64,000 nucleotides of DNA from Candidatus Hodarchaeota archaeon (GTDB lineage: Archaea; Asgardarchaeota; Heimdallarchaeia; Hodarchaeales; Hodarchaeaceae), in contig JAEOTM010000187.1 of the NCBI GenBank assembly GCA_016839815.1, positions 37,214 to 101,213 of the forward strand, given 5' to 3'. Made by a program: the position numbers and the translations under genes. Shown piece after piece: positions 2,048 to 63,911 of this stretch. Below the pieces are notes generated by a model. It was not told the DNA's origin, searched no databases, and saw only the letters and a list, made by a program, of their open reading frames with translations. Numbering within the stretch: the first letter of the stretch is position 1; each line of letters opens with the position of its first letter.

Positions 2048-2320
2048 TATCGGTGACTTCAAAACTAGAAATGTAAATTTCACTTAGTATATCGACCTAT
2101 TTTTTTTTGCGGAGACTTTCTCTAGGTGAGAGGATTAGGGAATGTATATTAAGATTTAATCACTAAAAAAGCCTAAGACGGATGAATCTTTGATTACGAA
2201 AATGTCCTAAAACGGGATATCCCAATACCTTGTCTAATTTACCCTTATAAGACAACTTCATAATTGAGATTTCGAACTTCTCCAAATCTGATAATAAATA
2301 GTATGATGGAGAGATATATT

Positions 2321-5300
2321 ATGCGACTGAAAGTCTTACGTGTCCAACACATTATGTTGTTAACAGTATTAATGTTAAATGTTTTTGCTTTGATGATTAA
2401 TTTTAATAGTGTATTGGAGGGAGAAGTCGAAGGATTCACTGCAGACCTATTAAGAGGATTTGGAGTACCAATACATAATGAAGATCAAAGTGAATCAGTA
2501 ATCCCGAAATTAACAACTGAATCTCTTAATAAAATTGACGAAAGGAATCAGGTGAACTCTTTTCCCATCACAACATCAAAGATCGTCAATAGTTTTTCGC
2601 TTCCCTCTTGGGGAGGATTGGGTTTTGGGTTTAGGAAAAATATCACAATTGATTCTACTAAAGTTCCTACAGATTTAACTAATTTTCCTTTATTGATTGA
2701 TATGAAAGACGCTCCTGATATCTTTGGTGTTACTCAAGCTTCGGGAAAGGATATTATATTTACTGATTCATCAGGGACGATTTTAGATCATGAAATTGAA
2801 CTCTTTGATGACGATACTTATCATTTAGTTGCCTGGGTGCGCATTCCTTCCCTTTCAAGTAGCCTAGATACACGTATTTCAATGTACTATGGAAATGAAA
2901 CTATTGGTACTCAACAAAATCCCTCTGGTGTTTGGGACAACGACTATATGGCTGTGTATCACTTAAACGATAATCCTAGCTCGACCATCTATGATAGTAC
3001 TTCCAATGATAATGATGGGTCATCATATGGTTCTGTCATTCAAGAAGAGGGACTGATGGGAAATGCTTATTACTTTGATCAACAAGGAGGTACAAATGAT
3101 TATCTACAGATTCCTCAAAGCACTAGTCTTAATCTCGTAGGAAATCAGATGACCTTAGAAGGATGGGTGTACTTACAATTTACTCCTGTACTACATGATT
3201 CCATGGTTTTTGACAAGGCAGGTGATTTTTACAATACTGATGGATGGATGATGGGAGTTGATGGAGAGTACGTATCTGGTGGAGTCGGGTATCCCACACG
3301 GTTAAATCAACGATTAAATACTCAAAATAATCAAGCTATTCGAACAGATAATGGTGCAATTTATCCTGGACAATGGACTTATCTCACAGTAGTTTATAAC
3401 GGTATCACGACATCGTATACTGGTTATATTGATGCTTCAAGTGTTTATAATAATCCAAGCATCAGTGGGAATATTAGACCGGTAGATATGGATCTATTTA
3501 TTGGAAAACGCGATGAAGCTGCAAATCGAGTGTTTTATGGAAGTATGGATGAGCTTAGAATTTCAAATACTACACGATCAACTGGTTATATTACAACCTG
3601 TTATAATAATTACAACGATCCCGATTCATTTTATAGTATCTCCCCTCAAGAACCTAGTTTTTCATTATTTGAAAAACAAAGGACTCTTACAATTGATTCT
3701 TCAATTGTAGCTGGTGGTAGTGATTTAACCAACTTTCCATTACTTTTGAATTTATACCTAGAAAATGCTTCTCAGAATGTGTTGTTCCAAGATGCTTCCA
3801 CCTCTCAAACCCTTGATTATGAGATTGAGCACTTCGATGCAGAATATAACACAAGTCATGGCAGGTTGGTAGTGTGGGTAAAAATTCCGATATTATCTAG
3901 TACAGTTGATACAGAAATTATCATGTTTACAGATTCTACTATAGCACCTGTGACAAGTAATACGAATATCTGGAAAGGATATCGAGGAGTTTGGCACTTG
4001 AGTGAGAGTGTCGTAGATGAGAGTTCAGCAAATAATGTTTACTTTGATGCAACTGGGGAAGGAAGTTTAGGAAATCAGCATGGTAGTGATGATAGTGGGA
4101 GCTCACTTGGTAAAGGAGCAAGTTTTGATGGTACCAATGACTATATCGAAATGGGTTCCCCTAATATCTTGAATCTCAATGATAGTACTGATTCTGGAGG
4201 AATTGATCAAGTTTTTACACTTTCTGGATGGTTTTATCGAGATACCACTGGTACTATTGATGTAATTGTTGATAAATCTCAAGATGGAACTTATCCTAAT
4301 ATTCTAACTGGGTACATGGCATATATCGACTCAGATAACCGATTTAATTTTCGTCTTATGGATGATGATGATGATGGTTACAAAATGATTTCTGCATCAA
4401 CTTATACTAATCCTGGTTGGCATCATTTTGCGGCCACTTTCGATACATGTGGAGGTGGGGGGATATTCACAGAAAGTGTGAATTGGAAATTACTTATTGA
4501 TGGTGTTGATGACACGGGAACAAAAGGAAGTTGGGGTCCAGGTGGAGGAGCATGGGAGTGGATCAATGGTTATCTGCCTAATGATGGTTATTTCACAATT
4601 GGAGCAAATTCCAATAATTCCAATTATTTCGATGGACTTATCGATGAAATTCGTTTGATAGATTCAACCTTATCACCAGATTGGATCGCTACCGAGTATC
4701 GTAACGCCTATAATTTATCATCTTACCTTTCTATTAGCCCTGAAATCGAAAGCCAAAGATTATGGCATGATGATTCATTTGCAAGACGAAAGGATTTGCA
4801 GATCGATTCTTCAGGTTTTCAGGATGCGAATAATGAACATCATATTATACTTCGACCAGGTGCGCGAGGAACAGATTATAATCAATGGGGAGTATCAGGA
4901 GCTAATTATCGGCATGCAGCAGTAGAGGAAGTTATAGCTGACGGTTGGACAACGTATATCACCCATTCTAGTAATAATACCTATCTACGTGAGATGTTCT
5001 ATGCCGTTGGGTTACCTCCCACGACACCAAGTGGAACAATTACTAGTGTGAGGATTTATAGTACAGCAAGGACTTCTGGAGTCGTATCTTCTTATGCATT
5101 TCAACATTATGTGAGAGTAGGCGGATCTAACCAATGGTTTGGATCTCGGGGTCTTAGTGGTTCTTGGATTAAGGATTATGATGAACAAACAACTAATCCT
5201 GTTACTTCTCAACCTTGGACATGGCAGGATTTGGTAGATTTTGAATTTGGAGTCCGTGCTCAAGTTGTAGAAGGTGCTTCTGCAGGATATATTCGTGTAA

Positions 5301-8300
5301 CTCAGGTTTACGCAGTAGTTTCATATATCCCAGACTCCTCTTCTCTCGAAAATTTCCCAATATATCTTGATATCGATGATTCTGATCTTAAAACAGATGT
5401 TCAAGCTAATGGTAATGATATTTGTTTTTATGACGAATACGGCATGTTTCTTGCACATGAAATTGTTGAATTTGATCAAAATTTCAATTCTACTCATGCT
5501 CATTTATCTGCATGGATAGAAATTCCTACTTTATCAACAGGTGGGGATTCCTATATAACAATGTATTATGGAAATTCTACCTTAAGTTCTCAAGAACGAG
5601 CATCTGAAACTTGGGAGGATTTTTTAGCAGTTTATCACTTGGAAGAGGCCCCAACAGGGCCTGTATTAGATAGTACGTCTAATAATTTAGATTTAACCTC
5701 ATCAGGAACAATGACCACTGGTGATTTAGTGGTTGGCCAGATTGGTTCCTCTATTGATTTTGATGGTATTAATGATCAATTATTTACAACCCAAGTTGTT
5801 TCCATAGGGAGTTTCACAATCTCTACTTGGGTTTATTTCGACGCAGGAGTTGGATGGAATACAATTGTAAATTTCGATCGTAGTATTTCTGATTATCGGC
5901 AATTTGCGGTTCAAGATTGGGATCCTCGTTTTGATGGTGCAGGTTATTCCTATCCTTTTGGAGGGCCTTATAGTATTTCCACTTGGTATCATTTAGCTTT
6001 TAGTTACGATGCAAATACAACTGAATTTAACGTGTATGTAAATGGAGCTCTTTCAGGACCAACTCGCTATCTTAACATACCCGATTTAAGTGATGATTTT
6101 CAGTTGGGCGCATGGGGAACAGGTGATTGGTGGGATGGTAAACTAGATGAGATTAGGATTGCTACAGAAAAAAGATCAGAAGCATGGATCAAAGCTGAGT
6201 TTGCTAATCAAGAAAATCCTTCAACATTTATTACTATGGGTCAAGAGGTTGAACTCCTCCCCCCGACAGTGAATTCATTTGGAGTCGATGATCCAGGGAA
6301 CGGGAATCCCACTTTTTGGGCGAATATTACTGATCATGATTCCTCTGTGTCTTTCGTATCTTTTAGAGTAAATTCCTCAGATGAGATGATGTCTAAAAAT
6401 GCCAGTGGTATCTGGACTTATCAGCTACCATCGGTAAATTATGGTGATTATTATACTTATCAAGTTACCAATGCTTCAGATCTTAATGGAAATTATTTGT
6501 CAACAGCTTCCATCATCCGAGATGTCACATTTGACTACGATACCGTCTTACCAACTGTTTTAGATTGGGATTATGACCCCTATAAAGGCGTTAATGGAAC
6601 CTTTAACGCTAATGTTTCCGATAGCTGGGGAACTGTAAATACAGTAATGGTGAATGTGACTGCACATGATAATATGGGTGATTTAAGTGGTTTGTGGGGT
6701 ATAATGAGATATACTCCTGGTGGTTATGTAAATGATACAATTAAAATGCTTTCAGGAACCATTAGTTTTGTTGTTACTGTTACAGATATACGTGGAAATA
6801 GTTTCACGTCAACAGAACATGTATCTATCGTAATTAATCATGCACCAAGTATTGAGAACGTTTTATTATCTCGTGATATATCAAATGAGACACTCCTTCC
6901 AGTCTATAGCAATAGTACTGCGATATATTTGCATTATGATTTCAATGATGTTGATGGAGACTCACAATCAGGTACTCAGATTCGATGGTATAAATGGAAT
7001 GATACTGCCTGGGTGCAACAAGGAGCATATGATGACACTACTCAAGTTCCTCGGACTGCTTTAATTAAAAACGCAATATGGAGAGTTTCAGTTAGACCAA
7101 GAGATGGAATTGACTTTGGAACAACGGTCTACTCTGATAATATAACAATTGAGAATACTGTACCTCTAATTCGAGATCCCATCCTTTCCCCAACTAATCC
7201 AAAGACAGGAAATGATCTTACTGTATCATATACGTGGATTGATGCGGATGCACTGGATACAGATCAATCACTTATTCAGTGGTACAGAGATAATGGAAGT
7301 GGTTATTACTTACTAGACAGTTATACAAATGATACTTTACTTCCCTCAAGTGTTACAATAAAAGGAGATAAGTGGAGGGTTAATGTAACTGCAAGTGACG
7401 GGGATGGATTTGGAAATTGGATTGTAACATTGGAGATTATTATCCTAAATACAGCCCCTACTCTGGACGTAGATATTAATAATAAAACAATTCCTTCTAC
7501 TGTAGATGTCAATGACGATTTAGTTGCGAATTATACGTATTACGATGCCGATGGAGATAGCGAATCCTCGGTCGAGTATCAATGGTTGAAGTTCAATACT
7601 ACAAGTAATGATTTTGAAATCTTTACGACAGGTGTAGATAATATTAGTTATACAAACACTATTGCTGGTGAACTTTGGCGTGTAGAAATAAGAGTTAGTG
7701 ATGGAACAAATACAAGTGGATGGGTTACTTCTGCAACAATGAGTATTGGAGTAGCACCAAATAATCCACCATCAGCAATCAACATAAATCTGACACTAAG
7801 TAATGCTGTAGCAGGGGGATTTTTGTATATTAGCTACACTTTTACTGATCCTAATGGAGATAATGAAACAATTTCTCTTTACAGATGGTATCGAAATAGT
7901 GTATATCAACCCCAATTTGACGGATATCGCAATCTTACAAGTGCATCATTAGTGAAAGGAGATTCATGGTATGCTGAAGTAAGACCAAGAGATGAGCTTG
8001 ATTATGGAAATTGGAGTCAGAGTACGGTTATTGTAATTGGAAACACAGTTCCGACGGTTACTTCGACAGAAATATTCCCATCTGGCGATGCATTTACTAC
8101 AAATGTCCTGGTAGCAAATTATGAAACAAGTGATGTTGATGGAGACACAATTGTCGATTACAAGATTGTATGGAATAAATATAATGGAACTTCTTACGAG
8201 ATAACCTCTCTGGAGAATGAAACTGAAGTTCCTGGCTCTTCTACATCAAAAGGAGATATATGGACTTTTGAGGTTTTCATCTATGATGGAACAGATTGGT

Positions 8301-11300
8301 CATTAGGGGTTACTTCTCTCCAGAAACAAATACGAAATTCCGAGCCAACTATCACTGATATTTCTCTTTCAGGTGGAGAAAATTCGAGTAGAAATATCAC
8401 ATTATCCTATAAATTCGTAGATCTTGATAATGATACTGAATCTGGTACTTCGATTACCTGGTGGATAATTTCAGGTACTGGCCCAACTCAAATCCCAAAT
8501 GATCAATTAGCGTTGATTTTTACATCCTTCGTTGCTGGAGATCTTGTATATGCAGCAATTACCCCTGATGACGGTTCTGGCTCAACTGGTCTATTTTTAA
8601 CTATAGGTCTATCCAATGGCCTGATCATTGTAGGAAACAGTGCTCCCACATTGGATGACGCGCCCAATATCCTAGGACCAAATGATTCCACTTCATTTAC
8701 AGCTGGATTCCCTATTTACGTAAATTATTCTGCCTCAGATCCTGATCATGGAGAAGCTGATGCGATCTATGATATTGAATTAGATGGAGATGGATATGTT
8801 GTTGGTGCAGAATACCAATGGTACAGAAATGATCTTCTTGTTGCTACATTAACGGGTCCAACAGTACCAACCGATTATCTAAGTAAAGGCGATAATTGGA
8901 TGGTGAGAGTGAAACCTCGTGATCGTTATGGTTATTTTGGAGATTGGATAAATTCCTCACTAATAGTAATTGCTAACAGTAATCCTGAAATTTCAGGAGT
9001 AGAGTTTATCACCACTTATTTGACAACCATAATCGATATTCGTGTCCAATTTACTTATTCTGATATTGATGGTGATCCAATCCAAACTGAAAATACTTCT
9101 ATTCTATGGTATCGGAATGGTATCCTAATACTTGGTACAGAAAATCGAACTGTTGTTTCTAGCGAACTAATTGGGGATTCTTATCTCGTCATTATTACCT
9201 TAAACAGTATTAATTATCAGAAAAATGATAATATTTCAGTAACTGTACAGCCATTTGATGGAACTGACTGGTCCACAACAAGTTCCACTAGTAGCGAAAT
9301 TACCGTCCAGAACTCACTTCCAACGGTTTCTAATCTCAATTTGCTCCCTCATAATCGAAGTGGGACAATTATTTACACTACTGATCAAATAAATCTATCT
9401 TGGGTTTATTTTGATCATGATGGAGATAATGAGAGTTCCCCTATTATTATTTGGGAAAGAAACGATGTCATCCAAGGCTTATATAATAACTCATGGTTTA
9501 TTCCTTCAGTAGCAACAGCAAAAGATGAAAAATGGGACGTAATCATACAGACTTTCGATGGTACAAGCTACAGCGTTGGACTATCGATAACTATAATCAT
9601 TACCAATAGTATTCCCACATTAACAGATGTAATATTAGAGAATAATGAAGGTCTTACGAACATTACTTATGCCGATAATGGAATTTCAATTGACTATATA
9701 TACACTGATGCTGATTTTGACTCTGTTGATGAAAATTCGGGTTTCATTCAGTGGTATCGTAATGGTGTACATGTTTCTGTGTTAGACAACCAAACGAGTA
9801 TTTCTGGTAGTGAGCTGGTTAAGGGTGATAATTGGTATGCAGTTGTGCAAATACTAGATCGGGGTGGAGTAGTTTGGTCGAATAATCGTACTTCCCAGAC
9901 AATATTTGTTGTCAATAAAGCACCTGAAGTCATATCTATTCTCATCTTAGAGGAATTGAATCAACTTATTGAAGATGAAAATTTGACATTAATTTTGACA
10001 ATTACTGATCCTGATATTAATGATACTGACGCTTCTCTCATCGAATGGTTGAAAGATGGAATGATTCAACCACAATTTACTAATCAAATAGGAATCTCTT
10101 ATCTTGATACTTCACCAGGTGAAACCTGGACTATCAGAATCACACCATCGGATGGAATAGACAGCGGAGTAATTAGAAACAAATCTTACTTTATTCAAAG
10201 TCGTCCATATATTCAAGATCTAACTACAATTGTTGAGCAAGATACTGATGGCCACTTCACTTTTGGACTTCAGGTAGTCGATGCTTTAAATGCTATTACT
10301 TCAGTCAGATATCGGGTATTTCTTAATGGTAGTGCGCTACCTGAAATTGTCGATACATTAAATTCCCCCAATGCTACTGATTTCTGGAATCTTGACTATA
10401 TCTTATCGGATCCCGCGTACTATAATACTGAACTATTAATAGAAGTTTTAGCCACGTCTGTTCAGGATATTTGGGATCTTCGATTTTTCCATTTCACTAT
10501 TATTGATGGAGTAGCACCTCGTATTTCAACTGCTACAAGTTTAGGAGTATGGTTTGAGAAGAATAGTGACGATCCAACTCATCTATCTTTCTTTGCTGAG
10601 ATTGAAGAATATGGTGCTGGAGTTGCTAACGTCACCTTATATTATTATTACGACCCAGTTGAAGCTGGAGAAGGATCAGCATCCGTACAAGATTTTACGT
10701 CCATTCTTATGACTTTTAATAAATCAACCGGTGCTACTCTTACCTACGCAGTCACAGTTCCTTATCCTCAAGATCAAACCGATTATGAGATCTTGTACTG
10801 GGTTGCTACTCAAGATATGGATGGAAATAGTAATCCTGTGGCCTTTGATATTCGGAACTATCCTGAACGAATTAGTAATGAGAAAATTATCCAACTCACA
10901 ATGGGTGGTCTTCCAGAAGAAGTATTATTTATCGCTGGTGCAGCGGTTCTCTTGATTTTCGTCGGTGCAGTGGTATACGTTCGTTTCATTCGCAAACCAG
11001 AGATTATTGGATTAGACAAGGAACTAGTTATGAAGGGAGTTCCAGGTGTTGGAGACGAGAAAGTTTTTGCTGACATTGACCGACATACGTTGGGACTTGT
11101 AGTCAGCTTCTTCGATCAATTACATGGGCCAATCCCAATAATTGTCATTCCTGAAATGCTTAAGGATAATTATAGTAAGTTAGTGGCACTTTCTGATCGT
11201 TCATTTAGTGGTACTGGATTTAGTGATGATTATACAAGCGAAGTTCATTCCTCTTATGATTTTGTTTTGGCTGAAAAACTCAGGATTAGTGTTATGAGTT

Positions 11301-17251: not shown

Positions 17252-19408
17252 TTAGGGGTTTAATAATATACGAGTATCTACTGCTAGAACACCTTGATTC
17301 TGTTCAAATACTAATACTGGGTTGATTTCAATATCAGAAATATCTTTACATAATTGAATAATCTTACTTAACCGAAGAATGATGTCAATGCAGCCGCTGA
17401 TGTCTTTAGCTTCTTCACCCCTGACTCCAAGTAATAATGGATAAGAACGGATTTGTTGGATCATTTCAACAGCATCTGATCGTTTTACCGGAACTGCTCT
17501 AAAAGCGACATCTTTTAACACTTCAACATAAATTCCCCCTAAACCGAACATAACGGTGGGGCCAAATGTGGTATCAATTCTTGCGCCAATGATAGTTTCC
17601 ATAGCTTCGTCCATATTAATCATTCTGACAATTTCCACTCCCTCAATTATCGCATCAGGTTTATATTTTCGTACAGAGGCAAGAATGGCTTCATATGCAT
17701 CCAAAAGCTCTTCTCGATTTTCTAAATCAAGAGCTACTCCACCAGCATCCGATTTGTGTATAATATCCTTGGATACGATTTTCATGACTACAGGATATTT
17801 GACAACTTCTTCGGCGAAATAGATGACTTCCTCTAGATTTTTTGCCACATAACTTTTTGGTGTGGGAATTCCTGCTGCATCCATAACTCGTAATGCTTCG
17901 GGAACAAGTAAAAATCGTCGATTATCTGCTTTGACCTCATCAATAACCTTTTGAATAGTGTCTATATCGATTTCTGGATCATCTTGATCAGATATTTTGT
18001 CTTCAATGTGTGTTATATTATGATAATGTTTATACAAAGCACCAAGACAGCTTGCTGCCTCATAAACGTCCGAAAATATCGGAACACCTTTTGATTTCAA
18101 CGCAAATAATCCTTGTTCAAATTCTCCTCCTCCGAAAAATGAGAAAACAACTGGTTTATCAGGCTTATGATCCAAATATTGCTTTTGAACGACTGCTGCT
18201 AACTGATCTGCAGAAAATATGGCTGTTTCACATCCTAAAACGATAACAGAGTGAATATCAGGGCTATCTAAAGCTGTTTGGAGGGCTTGTTCATAAATCT
18301 CATTTGATGCTTGGCCTGTTATATCAACAGGGTTCTTAGTTGATCCAAAAGAAGGTGTTACCGGAGTAAAAATCTCTTTCAATACCTTATGGTCATCATA
18401 AAGCGTTACTCCATACAGCTCACATGCATCAGTAGCGAGAACACCAATTCCTCCTCCATTCGTGACAATGACGGTATTTTCCCCCGTGGGAAGATCCTTC
18501 TGGATAGCAAGGAATTTTGCCCAATTTAACGCTTCCTGTACACTTAAAGCTCTTAGTGCCCCAACTTGTCGTGCAATAATATCCGTAAAAACATTATCTG
18601 CTCCTGCTAAGGATCCAGTATGGGAGGCCGCTGCCATGGCACCTCGTTTGGATCTACCCGATTTGATTACTATTACTGGTTTAATCTTTGTTGCTCTTTC
18701 AAGAACCTTTGTTAATCGATCTCCATGTTTAAGACCCTCTATATACAAGAGAATTACTCTTGTATTGTCATCTGTGATAAAATATTCAATTAAATCAGCT
18801 TCGGCAATATCACTTTTATTTCCGACTGAGACAATAGCTGATAGTCCGATTCCTTCGGTAGCAGTTTTGCCAATCATTGCTACACCTAGAGCTCCTGATT
18901 GTGTGACAATTGCAACTGATCCATGCTCAATATGCTTGTAGCCGAAAGTTGCATTCACAGGGGCTTTAGCAGAGAAAATTCCAAAGATATTTGGGCCGAG
19001 TAATCGCATCCCATTCTCTCTTGCAAAATTAACTAATTCTAGCTCTTCATCAAGATTCCCAACTTCTGAGAACCCGCTTGTAATTATTGAGACAAATTTG
19101 GTTTTTTTCTTTGCACAACTTTTTAGTGTTTCAAATACGAACTTTGCTGGTACACAGATGGTTGCAAGATCAATAAAATCATCTATTGCCTCTATTGAGG
19201 GATATACTTTGCAACTAAGTATTTCTCCTCCTTTTGGATTAACAGGATAAATTTTCCCATGATATCCTGACGCGACAACGTTATCAACTACTTTATAACC
19301 GATTTTATTGGGATTCGATGATGCACCGATGATTGCTATTGATTTTGGTTCAAATAAATGCTTTATATGAGGACCTTTGGTTTTTGGCATACGATACTTG
19401 TTCTCCAT
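17252..19408 (-). CDS. acd: ADP-forming acetate/acyl-CoA ligase, fused alpha-beta
   Basis: IAIIGAS, GPNIFG, TQSGA, SHTGSLAG phospho-His motif, HKSDAGGV, EINP, DTR. Confidence 0.9.
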   Translation of the reverse strand: MENKYRMPKTKGPHIKHLFEPKSIAIIGASSNPNKIGYKVVDNVVASGYHGKIYPVNPKGGEILSCKVYPSIEAIDDFIDLATICVPAKFVFETLKSCAKKKTKFVSIITSGFSEVGNLDEELELVNFARENGMRLLGPNIFGIFSAKAPVNATFGYKHIEHGSVAIVTQSGALGVAMIGKTATEGIGLSAIVSVGNKSDIAEADLIEYFITDDNTRVILLYIEGLKHGDRLTKVLERATKIKPVIVIKSGRSKRGAMAAASHTGSLAGADNVFTDIIARQVGALRALSVQEALNWAKFLAIQKDLPTGENTVIVTNGGGIGVLATDACELYGVTLYDDHKVLKEIFTPVTPSFGSTKNPVDITGQASNEIYEQALQTALDSPDIHSVIVLGCETAIFSADQLAAVVQKQYLDHKPDKPVVFSFFGGGEFEQGLFALKSKGVPIFSDVYEAASCLGALYKHYHNITHIEDKISDQDDPEIDIDTIQKVIDEVKADNRRFLLVPEALRVMDAAGIPTPKSYVAKNLEEVIYFAEEVVKYPVVMKIVSKDIIHKSDAGGVALDLENREELLDAYEAILASVRKYKPDAIIEGVEIVRMINMDEAMETIIGARIDTTFGPTVMFGLGGIYVEVLKDVAFRAVPVKRSDAVEMIQQIRSYPLLLGVRGEEAKDISGCIDIILRLSKIIQLCKDISDIEINPVLVFEQNQGVLAVDTRILLNP

Positions 19409-19548
19409 GACCTAAAGCAAGTGGATCAAGATTTTTTTGATTCTAAGTAAATCTTAGCAGTAAATAGTAGGCTTTTTTTCGTTTATAATTGGAATTATCT
19501 CAGTAGTATATTTCTTTTGAGCTATATCTGAAAGTAATGAATCTCAGA

Positions 19549-21450
19549 TTAGAATGTCATCCTTAGTTCATAAACACCTTCAGAAAGTCGTTTATCAAGA
19601 TTAGGGAATAATTTTTCAAATAAAGCAAGCATTCCCCTATTTTCTAACAACACTTCAGCACTAAATCCAAGTAATCCAGCAGATTTCGCCAGATAAGTCA
19701 AATATTTCATTAATTCAGTGCCTATACCGTTTCTATGATGATCGTCTCGCACTACGAAAGCAGCTTCTGCGATATGGGAATGTTGGTCAATCCCATATTG
19801 ACCCACACCAATAATTTCTTGTGAGACACCTTTACTTAAGACTGCAAGAATGACCATCTCTTTTGAAAAATCAATAATACAGAAATCCTGTAATCGAGAA
19901 TGGGGAATATCCTTTCTAACACTCATAAATCGTCGATAAAGGGATTGGTCAGACAAATCATAAAAAAAGTCTTTTAACAAGGATTCATCACTAATTTTTA
20001 CAGGCCGAAGCATTATTTCAAGACCCCGTGAGGTTGTCCTCCATGTTTCTAAATGTTCTGGATATTCTCCTTTTTTTCCCGGGACGAAAGCCTGATCAGA
20101 GTAGATTAAATTGGCCTTTTTTGCTTCTTTTATCAACTGTGGTCTGAAACGTGGATGGGCAATAGAAATTAATTGCATGGCTCGTTCTCGTATGTTTTTT
20201 CCATGTAGGTAACCTATACCATATTCTGTGATTACGTAATGAATATCCCCTCGGTTGAGTGTTACACCCGCTCCTTCAGATAAGAAAGGGACAATTCTAG
20301 AGGTTTTTCCATTATCCGCTGTCGACTGAATAGTTAATATCGATTTCCCCTTATTAGCAAGGATAGCTCCGCGCATGAAATCTGCTTGACCTCCAATACC
20401 AGAATAAAAAGTTCTACCAATAGATTCAGAAGAGGCCTGTCCTGTCAGATCTATCTGTAATCCACTATTGATGGCGGTCATATTGGCGTGTTGAGCGATA
20501 TTTAATGGATTATTCGTGTATTCAATTTGTTTTAATTCAATTGAAGGATTATCATTAATAAAATCATAAGTCGACTGAGAACCCATACAGAACGACGCTA
20601 CAGACTTTCCACGATTCACCGTCTTTCTAGAGTTATCTATAACTCCTATTTTCATTAATTCAACAAGTCCATCGCTTACAAGCTCAGTGTGAACGCCTAA
20701 ATGCTTTTTATCTTTCAAATTTGTCATAACTGCGTTTGGTATACTTCCGTAGCCAACTTGTATTGTATCTCCGTCTTGAATTAATCGTGAAACATACTGT
20801 CCAATTTTATTTGCTACTTCGTCACTCGTAGGTTCCTGTATAAATTCTAAAATAGGTTCATCGTATGGGATAATATAGTCAATATCTTTTATGTGTAAAA
20901 ATCCATCTCCGTGAACTCGTGGCATTCTGCTATTCATTTGAGCAATTACAGTAGCTGCACTTTCGATTGCTGATTTAACAATATCAACTGAAACTCCAAG
21001 ACTAACATATCCATGATCATCAGGAGGCGTGACTTGGATTAAAGCGACATCTATCGGAACAAGTCCACTATAAAATAGACTTGGTGCGTTTGAAAGGAAA
21101 ATAGGTGTATAATCAGAAAGACCACTATTAACAGCTTCACGAGTAGGATTTGCAACGAAAAAAGAATTGTGACGAAAGTTTATTTGATAAGCAGTATCCG
21201 TATACGGGGTGACTCCCAAATTATACCAAGATAAAACCTCAGTATCAAAAAAAGCTTTTGGATGCTTTTCAAGATATTGAGCAAGTGAATTCATTAAGTA
21301 TTGAGGTTCACCACAACCTGTATGAACAAAGATTCGGTCACCTCTATGAATATTTTGGAAAATTCTTGCAAGTGATTCGAATTTTGATGGATATTGTTCG
21401 ATCAGTGCTGAATATACAGCATTTTTCTGATTTTCAGAAACCATTGACAA
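19549..21450 (-). CDS. Acetyl-CoA hydrolase/transferase fused to a C-terminal GNAT acetyltransferase
   Basis: LGVHTE and GIGGQADFMRGA; C-terminal RPVKISD...EAAFVVRDDHHRNGIGTEL. Confidence 0.9.
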   Translation of the reverse strand: MSMVSENQKNAVYSALIEQYPSKFESLARIFQNIHRGDRIFVHTGCGEPQYLMNSLAQYLEKHPKAFFDTEVLSWYNLGVTPYTDTAYQINFRHNSFFVANPTREAVNSGLSDYTPIFLSNAPSLFYSGLVPIDVALIQVTPPDDHGYVSLGVSVDIVKSAIESAATVIAQMNSRMPRVHGDGFLHIKDIDYIIPYDEPILEFIQEPTSDEVANKIGQYVSRLIQDGDTIQVGYGSIPNAVMTNLKDKKHLGVHTELVSDGLVELMKIGVIDNSRKTVNRGKSVASFCMGSQSTYDFINDNPSIELKQIEYTNNPLNIAQHANMTAINSGLQIDLTGQASSESIGRTFYSGIGGQADFMRGAILANKGKSILTIQSTADNGKTSRIVPFLSEGAGVTLNRGDIHYVITEYGIGYLHGKNIRERAMQLISIAHPRFRPQLIKEAKKANLIYSDQAFVPGKKGEYPEHLETWRTTSRGLEIMLRPVKISDESLLKDFFYDLSDQSLYRRFMSVRKDIPHSRLQDFCIIDFSKEMVILAVLSKGVSQEIIGVGQYGIDQHSHIAEAAFVVRDDHHRNGIGTELMKYLTYLAKSAGLLGFSAEVLLENRGMLALFEKLFPNLDKRLSEGVYELRMTF

Positions 21451-56005: not shown

Positions 56006-56097
56006 TATAATAGTTGTTACTCATATGGTAAGAAATAGGCATTAATAACTCTCTTTCTTTGATTTTTGTAGAAGTTTTTTTTTCCGAAGTGGATACT

Positions 56098-58419
56098 ATG
56101 GCTGTAGGTAAACGTTTAAAGCGGAAAGATGCAGATACTAAAGTAACTGGAGAAGCTCCTTATGCATATGATCTTTCATTCGCAGATGAACATTATTTGA
56201 AAGTAATCCGGAGCCCCTATGCCCATGCGCGAATTTTAGAGATAAATATCGATTATAAGAAACTTGAAGCTCTCAATGTTACGTCAGGAACAGTCAAGGA
56301 TATTCCAGAAAAGGGAAAAAATATCTTACATGTGATTCATGATGACTGGCCTTTACTCGCAGAGGAAGTCGTAAGACATGTAGGAGAACCTGTAGTAATA
56401 TTAGTAGGAAAGACATTGAAGTCGGCAGAAGATGCGAGTAAGTATGTATCAATAAAATATGAAGAATTACCAGTAGTATTTGATCCTGTAGAGGCGAAAG
56501 ATCATCCTACCATACACATCTTTGAGGAAAATAACGTTTGTTCCCATTGGCAGCAGAAGAATGGTGATGTCGAAAAGGGATTTGCGGAATCAGATATAAT
56601 AATCGAGAATGAATACCGAACACCAGCGCAGGAACATGCATACATCGAGACTCAAGGGTGTATAGCTGTCCCACAAGGAAATGATTCCATCACTGTATAT
56701 GGAAGTATGCAATGTCCTTTTTATGTCCAGCGGTGTATAGCCGAGGTACTTGGATTAGACTGGAGTAAAGTTAATATTATACAAACAACCACTGGAGGAG
56801 CCTTTGGTGGAAAAGAAGACGTTCCTAATCAAATAGGTAGTCTCGCCGCCCTTGGATCGTGGTTGATTAGAAAGCCAGTGAAATATATTCTGACGAGGGA
56901 AGAAGATATTGAGACAACATCGAAAAGACACCCAGCAGTCATTCGGTACAAAACTGGAATTACAAAAGCAGGTGAACTGAAAGCAATTAAGGTGGAAGTC
57001 TTTCTAAATACAGGAGCTTATGCAACGCTTGCACCCGCTGTTCTTTATCGAGCTGCAATGCATGCAGCTGGGCCATATCGATGTGAAAATGTAGATGTTC
57101 AGGCGTATGCAGTCACAACAAATCTTGTACCTTTTGGAGCGTTTCGGGGCTTCGGTTCTCCCCAAGTTCTATTTCCAGCAGAAGAACAGATGGATCGTGC
57201 CGCTGAAAGCATTAAGATGGATCCAAGCGATTTTCGTGAAATGCATATTCTCAAAGTCGGTGATAAAACTACATTTGGCCAAACATTGCATCAATCTGTG
57301 GGTTTAGAAGAAACTCTAAAGAAAGCACGAGAAGAAAGTGAGTGGTATAAAAAACGAAAACCAACCCCAACTATAAAAGAAGTATTAACTGATCAGAAGA
57401 AAGGAATTTACCGTCGAAGAGGAATTGGGATTGCCACAATATTCTACGGATGCTTCTTAGGAGCAGCAGGGAAGATTATGTCACGATCTGGTGCTTATGT
57501 TCAAGCAGAACCAGATGGAAGTGTTCGATTTGCGGTGGGAACTACAGAAATGGGACAAGGGATGATCACAGTTCTATCCCAGATTGTAGCTGAAGAGCTT
57601 GGAATCGAATATGAAAGAGTTCATATGACCCCTGTAGATACAAGCCGTGTTCCTGATTCAGGCCCGACTGTTGCTAGCCGTGCAACCATTATGTCGGGCC
57701 GTGCACTTCAGAATGCCTGTGAAAAACTTCGTGCCCTCATTTATGAAAAAGTTGCAATGAAATATAATGCAAATACCAGTGATTTACTGATTAAGGATTA
57801 TGAAATTCAAGATCAATCCACACAGAAGGTAATACTCTCAGTTACTGATGCGATAAAGTTAGTTTATCAAGAAAGAGGTCAAGTCGCTGTTGCTGGATGG
57901 GATGTTGCACCATCGACATCTTATGATAACGAAAAGGGGCAAGGAGATGCATATTCAGCCTATGCCTGGTGTACTAATATTGTAGAAGTCGAAGTTGACT
58001 CACAAATAGGAACAGTTGATATTTTAAATATATGGGCTGCTCATGATGTAGGAAAGGCGATAAATCCGCAAACTCTTGAAGGGCAGATAGAAGGAGGAAG
58101 CTTGCAGGGTTTAGGTTACGGACGGTATGAAGAAATTATATTTACACCTAAAGGACGAGTGTTATCCAATAATTTGGGAACATATTTGATCCCCACAACG
58201 AAGGAAACTCCCAAAATTCATTCCATCATTATTGAGGATCCTTGGTCCGAAGGCCCTTATGGAGCGAAAGGAATCGGGGAGCAACCATTAATGGGCATTG
58301 CCCCTGCTCTAACGAATGCTATTACCAATGCTGTGGGTATAAGATTGAATGCAATTCCAGCTACTCCTGAACGAGTGTGGGCGGCTATTCAAGAGAAAAT
58401 TAAGGAGGAAGAAAAATGA
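56098..58419 (+). CDS. Xanthine dehydrogenase family, molybdopterin-binding large subunit
   Basis: GGAFGGK, AFRGFG, EMGQG, GAKGIGE; start set at the ATG at 56098. Confidence 0.92.
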   Translation: MAVGKRLKRKDADTKVTGEAPYAYDLSFADEHYLKVIRSPYAHARILEINIDYKKLEALNVTSGTVKDIPEKGKNILHVIHDDWPLLAEEVVRHVGEPVVILVGKTLKSAEDASKYVSIKYEELPVVFDPVEAKDHPTIHIFEENNVCSHWQQKNGDVEKGFAESDIIIENEYRTPAQEHAYIETQGCIAVPQGNDSITVYGSMQCPFYVQRCIAEVLGLDWSKVNIIQTTTGGAFGGKEDVPNQIGSLAALGSWLIRKPVKYILTREEDIETTSKRHPAVIRYKTGITKAGELKAIKVEVFLNTGAYATLAPAVLYRAAMHAAGPYRCENVDVQAYAVTTNLVPFGAFRGFGSPQVLFPAEEQMDRAAESIKMDPSDFREMHILKVGDKTTFGQTLHQSVGLEETLKKAREESEWYKKRKPTPTIKEVLTDQKKGIYRRRGIGIATIFYGCFLGAAGKIMSRSGAYVQAEPDGSVRFAVGTTEMGQGMITVLSQIVAEELGIEYERVHMTPVDTSRVPDSGPTVASRATIMSGRALQNACEKLRALIYEKVAMKYNANTSDLLIKDYEIQDQSTQKVILSVTDAIKLVYQERGQVAVAGWDVAPSTSYDNEKGQGDAYSAYAWCTNIVEVEVDSQIGTVDILNIWAAHDVGKAINPQTLEGQIEGGSLQGLGYGRYEEIIFTPKGRVLSNNLGTYLIPTTKETPKIHSIIIEDPWSEGPYGAKGIGEQPLMGIAPALTNAITNAVGIRLNAIPATPERVWAAIQEKIKEEEK

Positions 58420-58871
58420 TTATTAGAATTACGATAAACGACAAATTCATTGTAAGAGATGTGTCCCCAAATCGACGATTATTGGATTTCTTAAGGGAAG
58501 ATTTAGGCCTTAAGGGAACGAAATATGGATGTGACCAAGGAGAATGTGGGGCGTGTTCAGTAATTCTAAACGATAAAATTGTTACCTCGTGCATTGTTCT
58601 AATGGCTCAAATACCTCTTAACAGCACTGTACTGACGATAGAAGGAAAAGATCCCACATTGCAGTTACTCCAAGAAAAATTCATGGAATTTGGCGCCGCT
58701 CAATGCGGAGCTTGCACTACAGGCATGTTAATGGCTGCTACGTCCCTTCTTCATCACAATTCTCAAGCTAATCAGGAAGAAATAGAAGAGGGTTTATGTG
58801 GAGTGTTGTGTCGCTGTACAGGCTACACTAAAATATATGATGCCGTTAAGGAGGCCCAAAAACATCTCTAG
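58416..58871 (+). CDS. Xanthine dehydrogenase family (2Fe-2S) small subunit
   Basis: GCDQGECGACSV, QCGAC, LCRCTGY. Confidence 0.92.
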   Translation: MIIRITINDKFIVRDVSPNRRLLDFLREDLGLKGTKYGCDQGECGACSVILNDKIVTSCIVLMAQIPLNSTVLTIEGKDPTLQLLQEKFMEFGAAQCGACTTGMLMAATSLLHHNSQANQEEIEEGLCGVLCRCTGYTKIYDAVKEAQKHL

Positions 58872-58879
58872 GTGGTATT

Positions 58880-59683
58880 ATGAGAAATCTCTTCATGTTA
58901 ATTGACCAAGAAATCAATGCTGGTAAACCAGTATCTTTAGTAAGTGTGGTTGATGTAAAAGGTTCGGCACCACAGCGAGTAGGTGCTAAAATGCTTGTTT
59001 CTGCTACTGGAGAATTATTATGGGGAACTATAGGAGGAGGAACAGTTGAATCTCTAGCGTTAAAACAGGCAAAATATCAAATTGAATCGAAAATACCCAT
59101 CCTGAAGACTTTTGAGCTACAAGAATCAGGCGAGGATGCAACTGGCATGTTGTGTGGTGGAGAGATGCAGTTATTCTTTGATGTATTTGGGACTTCAATA
59201 AAGGTGTTCATCTTTGGTGCGGGCCATATTACTCAACAAATATTGCCATTGCTCATGAAATTAGGATATACTCCTATAGTAATTGATGATCGGGAAGAAT
59301 ATCTGAAACAACATATTATATCAAGATTTAATGTCGCTACATATACTGGGGATTTTCTAGAAATCATAGAATCCCTGTTTATTGAACAAGATAGTTACAT
59401 CGTTATTTTGACTTATTCTCATGATATGGATGAGAAAATTCTATTTCATCTTCTCTCTCAGAAAATTTCGGATCTTTCTACAATAAAATATTTGGGAATG
59501 ATTGGTAGTAAACGAAAAGTGAAAGAAATCTTTTCTCGATTGGAGTCCAAAGGCATTTCTCGTGAGACTCTAGATTCTATTCATTCACCAATAGGAGTTC
59601 CTATAAACAGTCAAACCCCTGAAGAAATTGCGATTTCAATAGCTGCAGAATTAATATCTGTGCGCAATAAGGAGGAAAAATAA
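58880..59683 (+). CDS. xdhC: XdhC/CoxI molybdoenzyme maturation factor
   Basis: GTIGGG, CGG, FGAGH, YLGMIGS, TPEEIAISIAAE. Confidence 0.9.
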   Translation: MRNLFMLIDQEINAGKPVSLVSVVDVKGSAPQRVGAKMLVSATGELLWGTIGGGTVESLALKQAKYQIESKIPILKTFELQESGEDATGMLCGGEMQLFFDVFGTSIKVFIFGAGHITQQILPLLMKLGYTPIVIDDREEYLKQHIISRFNVATYTGDFLEIIESLFIEQDSYIVILTYSHDMDEKILFHLLSQKISDLSTIKYLGMIGSKRKVKEIFSRLESKGISRETLDSIHSPIGVPINSQTPEEIAISIAAELISVRNKEEK

Positions 59684-59684
59684 A

Positions 59685-60548
59685 GTGTACACAAATGAAA
59701 TCCTCTCACCTGCGAGTATAGAAGAGGCTCTAACGCTAAAGGATCAATATGGAAGTGAAATCTATCCCCTCGCTGGTGGAACAGATGTTCTAGTAATGGT
59801 ACGAAATAAGCTAGGAGTATGGGGTGACTCACCTCCTCTGTTGAATCTTAATACCATCCCAAATCTTAACGTTATTCAAGAAACTGAGGATAGTATCGAA
59901 ATTGGTCCGTTAGTCACTCATACTCAAGTTCTAGAAAGTCCTCTTGTTAAAAAATTTATTCCCACATTAACTAAAGCTGTGTCTATCATTGGTTCACCTC
60001 AAATACGTAATTTAGGTACAATTATTGGGAATATATGTAGAGCTTCTCCTGCTGCTGATACATTAGCTACGTTATATTCACGAGAAACATTAATACAAGT
60101 CCAAACGGTAAATAGTTTAGAATTGGTCCCCATTAACAAATTCATAACTGGTCCAGGTCTGATCGACATTCCTAAGAATGGATTAGTCACTAAACTTGTT
60201 GTTCCCAAGTTAGAAGGATATCAAGGTGACTATATTTCATTAAGACAGAGATATGCACTATCAATAGTTGTTGTTTCCATCGCAGTTGAGGCCCTTCTGG
60301 TGAAAGAAGAATCAAGAATTGAGGATATTCGAATTTCGTTAGGAGCTGTTGCACCCACCATAGTCCGAGCTACCCAAACAGAACACCTTCTAAAATCCCA
60401 ATTGTTTACCAAGGAATTAATCGAACAAGCCGAAGGGCTGATTGTAGAGGAAACTAAACCTATCACTGATATTCGGTCAAATAAACGTTATCGAAAAGCG
60501 ATGACTGGAGTCCTTCTTGGACGAATATTGAAAAGCCTTTTACCCTAG
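59685..60548 (+). CDS. Xanthine dehydrogenase family FAD-binding subunit
   Basis: LAGGTD, QIRNLGTIIGN, ASPAAD, PITDIRS. Confidence 0.92.
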   Translation: MYTNEILSPASIEEALTLKDQYGSEIYPLAGGTDVLVMVRNKLGVWGDSPPLLNLNTIPNLNVIQETEDSIEIGPLVTHTQVLESPLVKKFIPTLTKAVSIIGSPQIRNLGTIIGNICRASPAADTLATLYSRETLIQVQTVNSLELVPINKFITGPGLIDIPKNGLVTKLVVPKLEGYQGDYISLRQRYALSIVVVSIAVEALLVKEESRIEDIRISLGAVAPTIVRATQTEHLLKSQLFTKELIEQAEGLIVEETKPITDIRSNKRYRKAMTGVLLGRILKSLLP

Positions 60549-61534: not shown

Positions 61535-63676
61535 TTAGAAAAGCTTTTCATCATCTAGGAGTAGATTTAAATATTCCTTCAGCTTATCCGAGGTCTCTTC
61601 TTTCTTTTCTTCATGTTTTCTGGTAGCTTGCGGGTCTGAAATTTCCTTAAATTGCATGGCGGTTTTTATTGAAGCATGAATAATCTTGCATGCAAATCGG
61701 ACTGATCCCGCTGATTCTATAGGAATTTGCATTGCTTCTTTCAATAATTTTTCAAGTTGGAGCTCTGATATTGTTTCAGAAATGTGTGCCTGTCCAATAG
61801 GAAATCCTCGTTGAGTGAAACTGAGGATAAATCCCTTTTTTACAGATTCTAGATTAAAAGCAACTTTTTCACTATCTGGAAGTAAAAGATTGTTTCCACT
61901 AGTTTCTAACTCGATTGGAATTACAAATTCAACTAGATCCGCTCTAACTCCAGTTTCACTTCGAATTCTTTTTGTAGTGACATCCTTCGTAGAGCTAATT
62001 TTCCTAGCCTTTAACTGTCTGATTGATTCATAAATTATTTTTGCAGCGAAATACATTGATGAAATACCATCTTCAAAAACGCCAATACTCATAAAGTTCT
62101 TTTCATAGGCTAGTAAGTAAAGGATTTCCTCTTCAGTTGCTTCAGACGAAACTAAAGAACTTCCAATCAATTCTTTTTGACCCATACTACTCCGTAGCTG
62201 AAAAGAAATAAGAGCATTAAAACCATCATCAACTAAATCTACTTTAAAGCCCATACCCTGAGTATTTGGTAATGCAATAACCCCTTCGCTGCTTTCCATT
62301 TCAACTGGAACATCTAAATGTGCATATTCTACTGTTTTCTTTTTTACTTCTATCTCTTTCCTTTGAACTATTTCTTTAGAAGGTATGATATATGCTTGAA
62401 CTATTTCTCTTATACTAAATTGTGGTTTTTCAGATGCTAATACTAAGCATTTGACAATATCTTCTTCATTTAATTCTCCCTTAAGAATCAATGAAAATAA
62501 TCCAAGAAGTTTATTGTGATCAATAGTCCGATACTTTTCTTCCCCTTGAGATTTCTCAATAAATGGTAAGTACTTTAAGAATATATCACTTACTAACGGT
62601 ACAGGCATTCCAGAAGTAACACCCATTTCAAATAATTGATTCCATCCACTATTTACAAGTTCATTAGCTTCTCCAAAACCGATACGATAGAATTCAATTA
62701 GGTGATTAACTTCAACCGAACTAGTCGGAGGAGTCAATTGAGGTTCAAATTCTCCAGAAATTTCTTTAAGCGGTGGTGAAGTTAAGCTTTTTGCTTCTAT
62801 TTCTTCTAAATTGGGATCTCTGTGTATTAGGGTTGTTTCTGAAATAGATTCTTCGCTTGCTGCACTACCAAGAAAGACTTTAGCTTCGTCAGAAACATCA
62901 TTAGATGTCTTCAAAGATTGTTTCATAAGAAAACGCAATTTCTCTACAACGGTAGTATCTTCATCCGATTCTGTTGGTATTAGTCGTGTTTGAGCTATGG
63001 TAGCTACTGGTTCAATTTTATCTGCTAGTGTCATCTTAATTTCATGATGTTCCTCTATTTCCCCAATTAATCGGCCATTTACAAAGTCGCTTTGAGAAAG
63101 CTCTGGAAGACAAAGTTCAAAAATTCGTCCAAACGTATCAATAACACTTTCAGGTTTAAAAATTGTGGTTCTAAAAAATTTCAATTGATTTGAACATTCA
63201 ATTTGGAATTGTTCCTTTAATTGCTCATGAATTGATTCATAATTAGGGCTATTTCTAATTAAATCATTCTTGTGTAAGAATACGAAGATATTGGCTGTTG
63301 GAGAGAATTTGTTCAATTTTTCTAAACAAGCTGTGAAATATTGAATTGAGTTATTTCGTGATGTTTTATTTGCAACATCAATTAGAAAAATAAATATTTT
63401 AACATTACTAAATACAAATGGACTAAATCCACTTAGAAACCGTTGTAAAAAGATCTTTTGTCCACCCAAATCGACAATAGTGACTGGTACATCATTCACT
63501 GTGAGAGACAATCTCTCGTAATTAATTGTTGCAGAAAGTTTATTCACGTCTTCGGTTTGCTGCTTTAAAAAGAAAATTCGTTTTACCGCAGTTTTTCCTG
63601 CCTCACTCAAACCAGCAATTAGGATTTTATATCCAAGTTGTTGAGAAATCTCGGACTCCGAAACCCATCGTGACAT
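61535..63676 (-). CDS. Paralog of the long Rag-family GTPase at 11598..13793
   Basis: Same GLSEAGKTAVKRIFF, SATINYERL, DLGGQ and HKND motifs and the same C-terminal architecture; start set at MSRWVS by alignment (track start 63682). Confidence 0.88.
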   Translation of the reverse strand: MSRWVSESEISQQLGYKILIAGLSEAGKTAVKRIFFLKQQTEDVNKLSATINYERLSLTVNDVPVTIVDLGGQKIFLQRFLSGFSPFVFSNVKIFIFLIDVANKTSRNNSIQYFTACLEKLNKFSPTANIFVFLHKNDLIRNSPNYESIHEQLKEQFQIECSNQLKFFRTTIFKPESVIDTFGRIFELCLPELSQSDFVNGRLIGEIEEHHEIKMTLADKIEPVATIAQTRLIPTESDEDTTVVEKLRFLMKQSLKTSNDVSDEAKVFLGSAASEESISETTLIHRDPNLEEIEAKSLTSPPLKEISGEFEPQLTPPTSSVEVNHLIEFYRIGFGEANELVNSGWNQLFEMGVTSGMPVPLVSDIFLKYLPFIEKSQGEEKYRTIDHNKLLGLFSLILKGELNEEDIVKCLVLASEKPQFSIREIVQAYIIPSKEIVQRKEIEVKKKTVEYAHLDVPVEMESSEGVIALPNTQGMGFKVDLVDDGFNALISFQLRSSMGQKELIGSSLVSSEATEEEILYLLAYEKNFMSIGVFEDGISSMYFAAKIIYESIRQLKARKISSTKDVTTKRIRSETGVRADLVEFVIPIELETSGNNLLLPDSEKVAFNLESVKKGFILSFTQRGFPIGQAHISETISELQLEKLLKEAMQIPIESAGSVRFACKIIHASIKTAMQFKEISDPQATRKHEEKKEETSDKLKEYLNLLLDDEKLF

Positions 63677-63911
63677 CTTCAATTTTATCCTTGTGTATTG
63701 AGTGACAATTACAAATCAGAGAAGATTATTATTCAATATATTCATGTTTAACTGTGATTAACATTTTAATAAGACTTCTAATTAACTCATCCGAAATTAA
63801 TTGGGAGAATCTATTTATAATTATTGATATTATCATGCAAATTAGTAATTAGTTAAAATTTCCCTGAAGGTAAATACTTCACTTGAATTCAGAGAAGTGT
63901 TGTGAGTATAA

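Follow-up and report, generated by a model that had tools for sequence, protein, structure and literature searches.

The window, as the whole 64,000-nt stretch analysed here is called, derives from a Candidatus Hodarchaeota genome (contig JAEOTM010000187.1) and carries a giant gene for a predicted single-pass surface protein, followed by two Rag-like GTPase genes and the gene of a soluble 352-aa protein. The features of this locus are, in window positions:

2264..11578 (+), giant gene of a predicted single-pass surface protein, 3104 aa from a TTG start; alternative ATG starts at 2303, 2306 and 2321
2342..2398 (+), N-terminal hydrophobic stretch, aa 27-45, hydropathy 2.1
2744..6190 (+), three pairs of DUF2341 and Laminin_G_3 (ConA-like lectin fold) domains, from Pfam
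6281..10918 (+), repetitive stalk of ~100-aa units, with a weak Big_13 match and a W/DG pattern recurring in the family consensus
10922..10981 (+), single transmembrane (TM) helix, aa 2887-2906, hydropathy 2.7, followed by a basic RFIRK stretch (positive-inside)
10994..11086 (+), two juxtamembrane helices with a conserved GLDK, part of the domain in the model and kept in soluble relatives
11087..11542 (+), longin domain of the FLCN/SMCR8/NPRL2 type (β1 β2 α1 β3 β4 β5, C-terminal helices), without DENN module
11111..11137 (+), β1-β2 loop with F2950 (equivalent to FLCN Phe10), the GP motif G2955-P2956, and P2958
11330..11332 (+), R3023, candidate arginine finger in the β4-β5 loop, supported by conservation and, via homologues, placed on PF11704 column 61
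11498..11500 (+), R3079, second near-invariant Arg (98% conserved), in the last helix (model helix 158-183)
11598..13793 (-), Rag-like GTPase, 731 aa, convergent with the giant gene across a 19-bp gap; Gtr1_RagA 4.6e-30
14110..15006 (+), Rag-like GTPase, 298 aa; Gtr1_RagA 2.3e-36; catalytic Gln64 at 14299-14301
15023..16081 (-), soluble 352-aa protein, GP at aa 36-37 and Arg104; HHalign to the tail family 76%, E 2.4e-5

Orthologues of the giant protein measure 3079-3125 aa in three genomes of the genus. Hydropathy analysis revealed two strong hydrophobic stretches, of which aa 27-45 probably represent a signal peptide or an anchor and aa 2887-2906 the TM helix. A further hydrophobic segment, at aa 2082, falls inside a repeat unit of the stalk and was for that reason not accepted as a second TM helix. 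The DUF2341/Laminin_G_3 pairs were identified by Pfam at aa 161-238/276-440, 506-567/648-809 and 1049-1120/1177-1309, the second DUF2341 falling below the cut-off when taken alone, and the stalk units are probably Ig-like. Across the whole ectodomain, 61 N-glycosylation sequons were counted vs. 38 expected. Hydropathy, the positive-inside rule, the sequons and the lectin-fold domains together predict a single-pass topology with the GAP-like domain inside, and we infer that the tail is cytoplasmic. Membrane anchoring of the tail, as put forward in the original prediction, is supported, with a single strong C-terminal hydrophobic helix located upstream of both motifs discussed below.

These motifs, which had been read as the signature of folliculin (FLCN) and SMCR8, lie where they were predicted, with FDQLHGP at 11111-11131 and the Arg codon CGT at 11330-11332, corresponding to residue 3023 of the ORF 2264-11578. 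F2950, G2955 and P2956 provide a GP motif with a Phe10 equivalent in the β1-β2 loop. Of the eukaryotic motifs quoted there, FLCN 9-16 and R164 (6ulg_L) and SMCR8 R147 (6lt0_B) agree with PDB chains, the FLCN and SMCR8 numbering having been checked with short query peptides against the PDB. A loose two-motif pattern was found in 2 of 3272 ORFs vs. 0-4 in shuffled sequences, which is chance level; therefore, short motifs alone prove nothing and their significance by themselves was rejected. A family-shaped pattern, itself derived from the tail's own family, occurred in one ORF and in none of 10 shuffles. The real support is found in fold and conservation rather than in short motifs.

The 194-aa tail was modelled with AlphaFold2 using 52 homologues (pLDDT 91.7), placing FDQLHGP across the β1-β2 turn and R3023 between β4 and β5. 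Its top structural match is the Lokiarchaeal longin 8yqg_B (VIA Z 15.2, rmsd 2.8, 141 aligned residues) and its best eukaryotic match is FLCN (8dhb_J; Z 13.8, rmsd 2.7, 135 aligned), with further matches to Lst4 (Z 13.4), the GATOR1 chain 9o5d_D (12.3) and C9orf72-SMCR8 chains (12.1). Longin-GAP subunits score at Z 11-14, whereas generic longins (DENND1, TRAPP, adaptin) reach 9.4 or less. In the Atlas, structure matches comprise archaeal longin-GTPase proteins, an archaeal Folliculin cluster, C9orf72, SMCR8 and an Avl9 cluster, the latter at a TM score of 0.62. The comparison with the FLCN and SMCR8 longins that had been proposed as a check thus yields a match at the level of the fold. Searched directly by sequence, the tail gave no match in Pfam or the PDB, while 25 of the 52 homologues match PF11704 (Pfam Folliculin) at E values up to 1 (best 3e-6). 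A profile of the full tail retrieved unrelated helical bundles only, a core-domain profile retrieved 8yqg only (E 0.19), and a bridge through the soluble PF11704 protein of the genome (C147) did not reach FLCN.

The register of the arginine was obtained by way of the Pfam family. FLCN 153-176 occupies PF11704 columns 50-73 without gaps, and R164 therefore corresponds to column 61. The 24 residues around R3023 align gap-free with FLCN 153-176, and the equivalent Arg falls on column 61 in four homologues, three of which are membrane-bound tails whose placement assumes a gap-free stretch from the match start to the Arg. Through homologues and PF11704, the conserved Arg of the β4-β5 loop thus appears to occupy the R164/R147 position. 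Neither a C-terminal DENN module after the longin nor a cDENN subdomain of the Avl9 type was found in the tail, by sequence or in the model: the ORF ends at 11578, ~70 aa past β5, and the membrane-bound homologues end likewise. With regard to the proposed folliculin/SMCR8 signature, the longin fold and the Arg at the R164 position stand, but the motifs mark a wider class of longin GAPs which includes FLCN, SMCR8, NPRL2 and published Asgard longins, and the β4-β5 Arg is also found in Avl9-type GAPs.

Conservation was analysed in 150 representatives at 50% identity. In agreement with the role assigned to it, R3023 is near-invariant (145 of 147 aligned), as are F2950 (142 of 143), G2955 and P2958 (143 of 143 each). 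The other Arg positions of the tail are conserved at 1-45%, with the exception of R3079 (98%), which is absent from the named contacts of the modelled GTPase interface and is probably structural. The GLDK of the juxtamembrane helices is conserved as well (G 99%, D 96%). Across 65 homologues, the R3023 equivalent is encoded by CGT, AGA, CGA, AGG and CGG; with five Arg codons (CGN and AGR) in use, it is therefore the residue and not the codon that is selected. The longin fold as such does not need the Arg, since 8yqg, the nearest Asgard longin of known structure, folds in the same way with no Arg between β4 and β5. No eukaryotic proteins were obtained among the best 150 representatives of the tail family.

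Of 21 other genomes of the genus, 19 encode the tail, in as many as 8 copies, and it also occurs in other families of the class. A TM helix is located upstream of the domain in 122 of 132 representatives, and the proteins reach 5,800 aa and more. Between orthologues, the tail shows 81-87% identity and the ectodomain a patchy 34-80%. Along the chain of one orthologue (L053), compared with window 2264-10918, ectodomain identity jumps between 38% and 80%, which suggests exchange of ectodomain segments among paralogues. The ectodomains vary, LamG and DUF2341 being found in 6 of 21. In these sequences, an inner module that stays fixed is combined with variable outer parts, a pattern that would suit a family of adhesins and one of receptors alike.

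Several relatives depart from this arrangement. The same domain including its first helices occurs in short TM-less proteins (~10 of 132 representatives; P0070, P0115, P0127, P0134 and P0148), one of which, P0148, has lost the Arg. A second TM-longin paralogue of the genome (G000 C195:2-3007, + strand), with 47% identity over 979 aa, keeps the Arg; it is cut by the contig start and has no adjoining Rag gene. A soluble 442-aa protein (L111:956-2284, G000 C147) matches PF11704 over the cut-off and keeps both GP and Arg, and an NKxD-type small GTPase gene is situated ~4.4 kb beyond it. At L041:1065-2003 (-), an Arg-bearing longin is fused to a C-terminal domain that appears V4R-like by eye. Finally, five genomes of the genus encode Arg-less TM proteins of 960-1030 aa with signal peptide, TM helix and a degenerate tail without F/GP and Arg. 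Their genes are found downstream of one or two tandem Arg-bearing genes:

L093:6415-9303, Arg-less TM-longin gene
L096:6414-9374, Arg-less TM-longin gene
L097:6373-9396, Arg-less TM-longin gene
L098:5751-8753, Arg-less TM-longin gene
L099:5877-8954, Arg-less TM-longin gene

An apparent Arg in the L097 paralogue was traced to misalignment. In the tree, the Arg-less tails form a separate, well-supported clade, and the Arg-less protein can be considered a candidate pseudo-GAP partner subunit.

Both Rag-like GTPases beside the giant gene exhibit intact G1, DxxGQ and HKxD motifs. The 731-aa protein consists of a G domain, a low-complexity linker and a ~400-aa C-terminal part; these last 400 aa (window 11598-12790, -) are conserved among homologues and gave no match to a Pfam family or Atlas cluster. 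At the position of Ras Tyr32, three residues before the switch I Thr, the 298-aa Rag has Tyr38 (14221-14223, +) and the 731-aa type a Leu, and linked loci usually combine one Tyr-type with one Leu-type Rag. The soluble 352-aa protein, in which GP and Arg are kept in 7 of 7 homologues, carries a probable second longin domain and is a candidate for a second GAP or a partner subunit. With its two Rags and two Arg-bearing longins, such a locus is reminiscent of the pairs RagA/GATOR1 and RagC/FLCN.

The four-gene set of giant gene, 731-aa Rag, 298-aa Rag and 352-aa gene is kept in three orthologous loci. More generally, among the 63 homologous genes for which sufficient sequence was available downstream, 18 are followed by a Rag-like gene within 300 bp, spread over four families, against a background of 7-9 Rag-like ORFs per 3272 in the genome; this supports the proposed tie of the tail to the neighbouring Rag-like GTPases. 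On the tree, Rag adjacency undergoes 6-10 changes, its rows not being independent, and the two deep branches both show it, in keeping with an old linkage that was lost on duplication. About 70% of the homologous genes have no Rag neighbour, the loci are interrelated, and ~45 other small-GTPase-like ORFs exist in the genome. In Lokiarchaeal relatives, an Arg-bearing longin is fused directly to a Rag-like G domain, and a longin-Rag-roadblock fusion architecture has been described before in the available passages of Tran et al. (PMC10933270). A Rag-like GTPase of the locus is the most likely substrate.

A complex of two tails with the G domain of the 298-aa Rag, GTP and Mg was predicted with a score of 0.79, the best of three controls scoring 0.01. 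In the calibration of the tool, 58 of 80 solved complexes attain the score mark, as do 2 of 110 mismatched pairs; this prediction differed from the calibration in its own alignments and ligands. With no other GTPase among the controls, the value of 0.79 does not speak to GTPase specificity, and it may reflect memory of 8DHB, 7MGE or 7T3B in the predictor. The runs share at least 93% of contacts at a partner pLDDT of at least 89. In the model, the dimer docks onto the catalytic face of the 298-aa Rag, the F2950-P2956 loop contacting Gln64 and switch II and R3023 contacting Ala40, next to the switch I Thr. Both tail copies touch the GTPase, the score covering tail-GTPase and not tail-tail contact. 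The modelled geometry repeats that of the active FLCN complex.

Folliculin (FLCN-FNIP2, a GAP for RagC/D; 8DHB, 6NZD, 6ULG; Lst7-Lst4 in yeast) shares with the tail the longin fold, the Phe10/GP loop, the β4-β5 Arg in R164 register and the modelled docking on a Rag G domain. However, identity is 16%, the tail has no DENN module, an FNIP-like partner was not identified, and folliculin is recruited to the lysosome, whereas the tail is joined in one chain to a TM helix and an ectodomain of 2,880 aa. The giant protein may thus be a folliculin-type GAP subunit in its mode of action; it would not be a folliculin orthologue, because the DENN module is missing. SMCR8-C9orf72 (an Arf GAP, R147) and NPRL2-NPRL3 of GATOR1 (a RagA GAP) likewise share GP motif and arginine finger (Z 11-12), but, unlike the giant protein, are soluble heterodimers in larger complexes with other substrates and no membrane span. 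The monomeric DENN GAPs Avl9 and DENND6A resemble the tail in carrying their arginine finger between β4 and β5 of the longin, but bind the GTPase switches via cDENN, which the tail lacks, and have Arf substrates (10.64898/2026.01.05.697756). The Lokiarchaeal Roadblock-Longin (8YQG), which was solved as a homodimer, shares the GP motif and is the best fold match, yet is soluble and without the β4-β5 Arg.

The tail is probably a membrane-anchored Rag-type GAP, and a combination of cytoplasmic tail, longin pairing and arginine-finger catalysis on a Rag-like GTPase is, taken jointly, a reasonably likely reading. In this model, the protein would be exported and held by one TM helix, with the lectin/Ig-like arm outside and the longin inside. 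Two longins, most simply two tail copies, would pair and grip the Rag-like GTPase in its GTP-bound state; helix α1 and the F2950-GP loop are modelled to pack on switch I and II beside the catalytic Gln, and R3023 to enter the active site, as FLCN Phe10 and Arg164 act on RagC. Faster GTP hydrolysis would then switch the Rag off at the membrane carrying the giant protein, while the outer arm would set where the GAP concentrates, e.g. at sites of contact or attachment. FLCN contacts RagC through Phe10 and the 10-16 loop, and its GAP activity is abolished by F10D as well as by FNIP2 V146E (PMC9473554). The Arg at the R164 position is kept, but the catalytic competence claimed in the original prediction goes too far, as the tail has no FNIP2-type partner or cDENN in cis. 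Since FLCN needs FNIP2 and Avl9 uses its cDENN, the tail would therefore have to pair with a second longin. No measured activity of Asgard longins of this type was found in the literature searched.

The tail could instead serve as a non-catalytic adaptor that uses its Arg for binding and tethers to the membrane either a GTP-bound Rag or, in the manner of the lysosomal FLCN complex in its inactive state, a held one. Conservation and the modelled interface suit binding as well as catalysis, a DENN module is missing and the partner subunit is only a candidate; however, all tested longins with such an Arg and GP loop are GAPs (10.64898/2026.01.05.697756 and the available passages of PMC12290439), and the existence of Arg-less tails as a clade of their own points to a chemical role retained by the tails with the Arg; an adaptor is regarded as unlikely. 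Catalysis on an Arf-related or Rab-like GTPase encoded elsewhere, as by SMCR8 and Avl9, appears rather improbable. SMCR8, Avl9 and DENND6A do apply the same Arg to Arf-family GTPases, the genome has many NKxD-type GTPases, most paralogues are without a Rag neighbour, and the longin-fused G domains in Lokiarchaeia score to Arf too. Yet these fused domains score best to Gtr1_RagA, all adjacent GTPases found are of the HKxD Rag type, and the β1-β2 loop is similar to residues 10-16 of FLCN, the determinant of RagC specificity (PMC9473554).

The need of FLCN, SMCR8 and NPRL2 for a second, different longin raises the further scenario that the tail is one half of a heterodimeric GAP, inactive until the 352-aa protein or an Arg-less membrane paralogue joins. 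The 352-aa gene is found in 6 related loci, and in five genomes the Arg-less TM-longin genes lie downstream of Arg-bearing genes in tandem. Against this, most Rag-linked loci lack the 352-aa gene, whose product carries an Arg of its own, the queries used retrieved no close relative of the Arg-less gene's tail from the genome (89.5% complete), and a homodimer sufficed in the complex model. This scenario is considered quite improbable. A GEF-like regulator, comparable to the longin/DENN GEFs Mon1-Ccz1, TRAPP and DENND1, is very improbable: longin platforms are often GEFs, these three are among the fold matches, and such a function was proposed for Asgard DENN modules in the available passages of Liu et al. 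(10.1101/2020.10.19.343400), but the match to these three is weaker (Z 7-9), and longins that are not GAPs reportedly lack the GP motif (available passages of PMC12290439). Lastly, a coincidental motif match in an unrelated anchor tail, to which the chance frequency of the loose motif pair and the lack of a direct Pfam or PDB sequence match for the tail would point, has next to no probability. It is largely refuted by the fold model, the structure matches with FLCN at the top of the eukaryotic ones, the invariance of the key residues, the Pfam Folliculin matches of 25 of 52 homologues and the Rag linkage.

If the tail is a Rag-type GAP, its activity might also be under ligand control. Such a true receptor-GAP, in which the variable lectin/Ig-like arms would bind surfaces, glycans or partner cells, is as a whole a tentative reading by analogy, possible rather than probable. 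Binding would pair or re-orient the tails, complete the two-longin GAP site and turn the Rag-like GTPase off; speculatively, a two-longin active site offers a simple route to ligand control by dimerisation, as in plexins. Plexins, the animal semaphorin receptors, are single-pass proteins with a large ectodomain and a cytoplasmic arginine-finger GAP that is switched by dimerisation, and provide a working analogy should the receptor reading hold. Their GAP, however, has a RasGAP fold unrelated to longins and acts on Rap/R-Ras, and their ligand is known. If true, the receptor-GAP would be a forerunner of the FLCN/GATOR1-Rag module that consists of a single protein and acts at the plasma membrane, with the Arg-less paralogues prefiguring the partner subunits FNIP, C9orf72 and NPRL3.

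The host, an Asgard archaeon, is a close relative of eukaryotes. Asgard genomes encode dozens of small GTPases whose controls and inputs are little understood, and gene layout is a poor guide to which regulator belongs to which GTPase (Tran et al., PMC10933270, passages available). Here, a candidate GAP, candidate substrates and a surface input domain are located at one locus, and the link recurs across families of the class. The small soluble pair of 194-aa tail and 180-aa G domain could bear on whether arginine-finger longin GAP chemistry predates eukaryotes, and the arrangement suggests that, before there were lysosomes, the ancestral Rag switch was linked to the cell surface.

Earlier work had described Asgard proteins resembling FLCN and NPRL2 (Liu et al., 10.1101/2020.10.19.343400), and an Asgard longin domain with GP motif and arginine finger is already known, GAP activity having been proposed for it (Novak Vanclova, Jackson, Dacks 2025, PMC12290439), as far as the available passages of these sources extend. 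The tail belongs to the same domain type, arrangement and lineage as the latter. The novelty appears to lie in the surface form with its single membrane pass, in the expansion of this form and in its linkage to Rag genes, set apart from published Asgard longins by description: the available passages of PMC12290439, Liu et al. and PMC10933270 contain no TM or giant extracellular form, paralogue family or Rag linkage. A transmembrane Asgard longin was not found in the literature, where coverage of subscription papers was thin, nor were the publications behind 8YQG and 9M28 in the literature searched.

Elsewhere in the window, one further Rag-like gene was identified:

61535..63682 (-), third Rag-like GTPase (715 aa), closely paralogous to the 731-aa gene (G domain E 3e-90); Gtr1_RagA 8e-32

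No longin gene was seen in the ORFs just downstream of it. Metabolic genes occupy window 16193-21450 (-), coding for a DRTGG/AAA protein, an acyl-CoA ligase and an acetyl-CoA hydrolase-GNAT fusion, and genes resembling xanthine dehydrogenase were recognised by sequence inspection at 56059-60548 (+).
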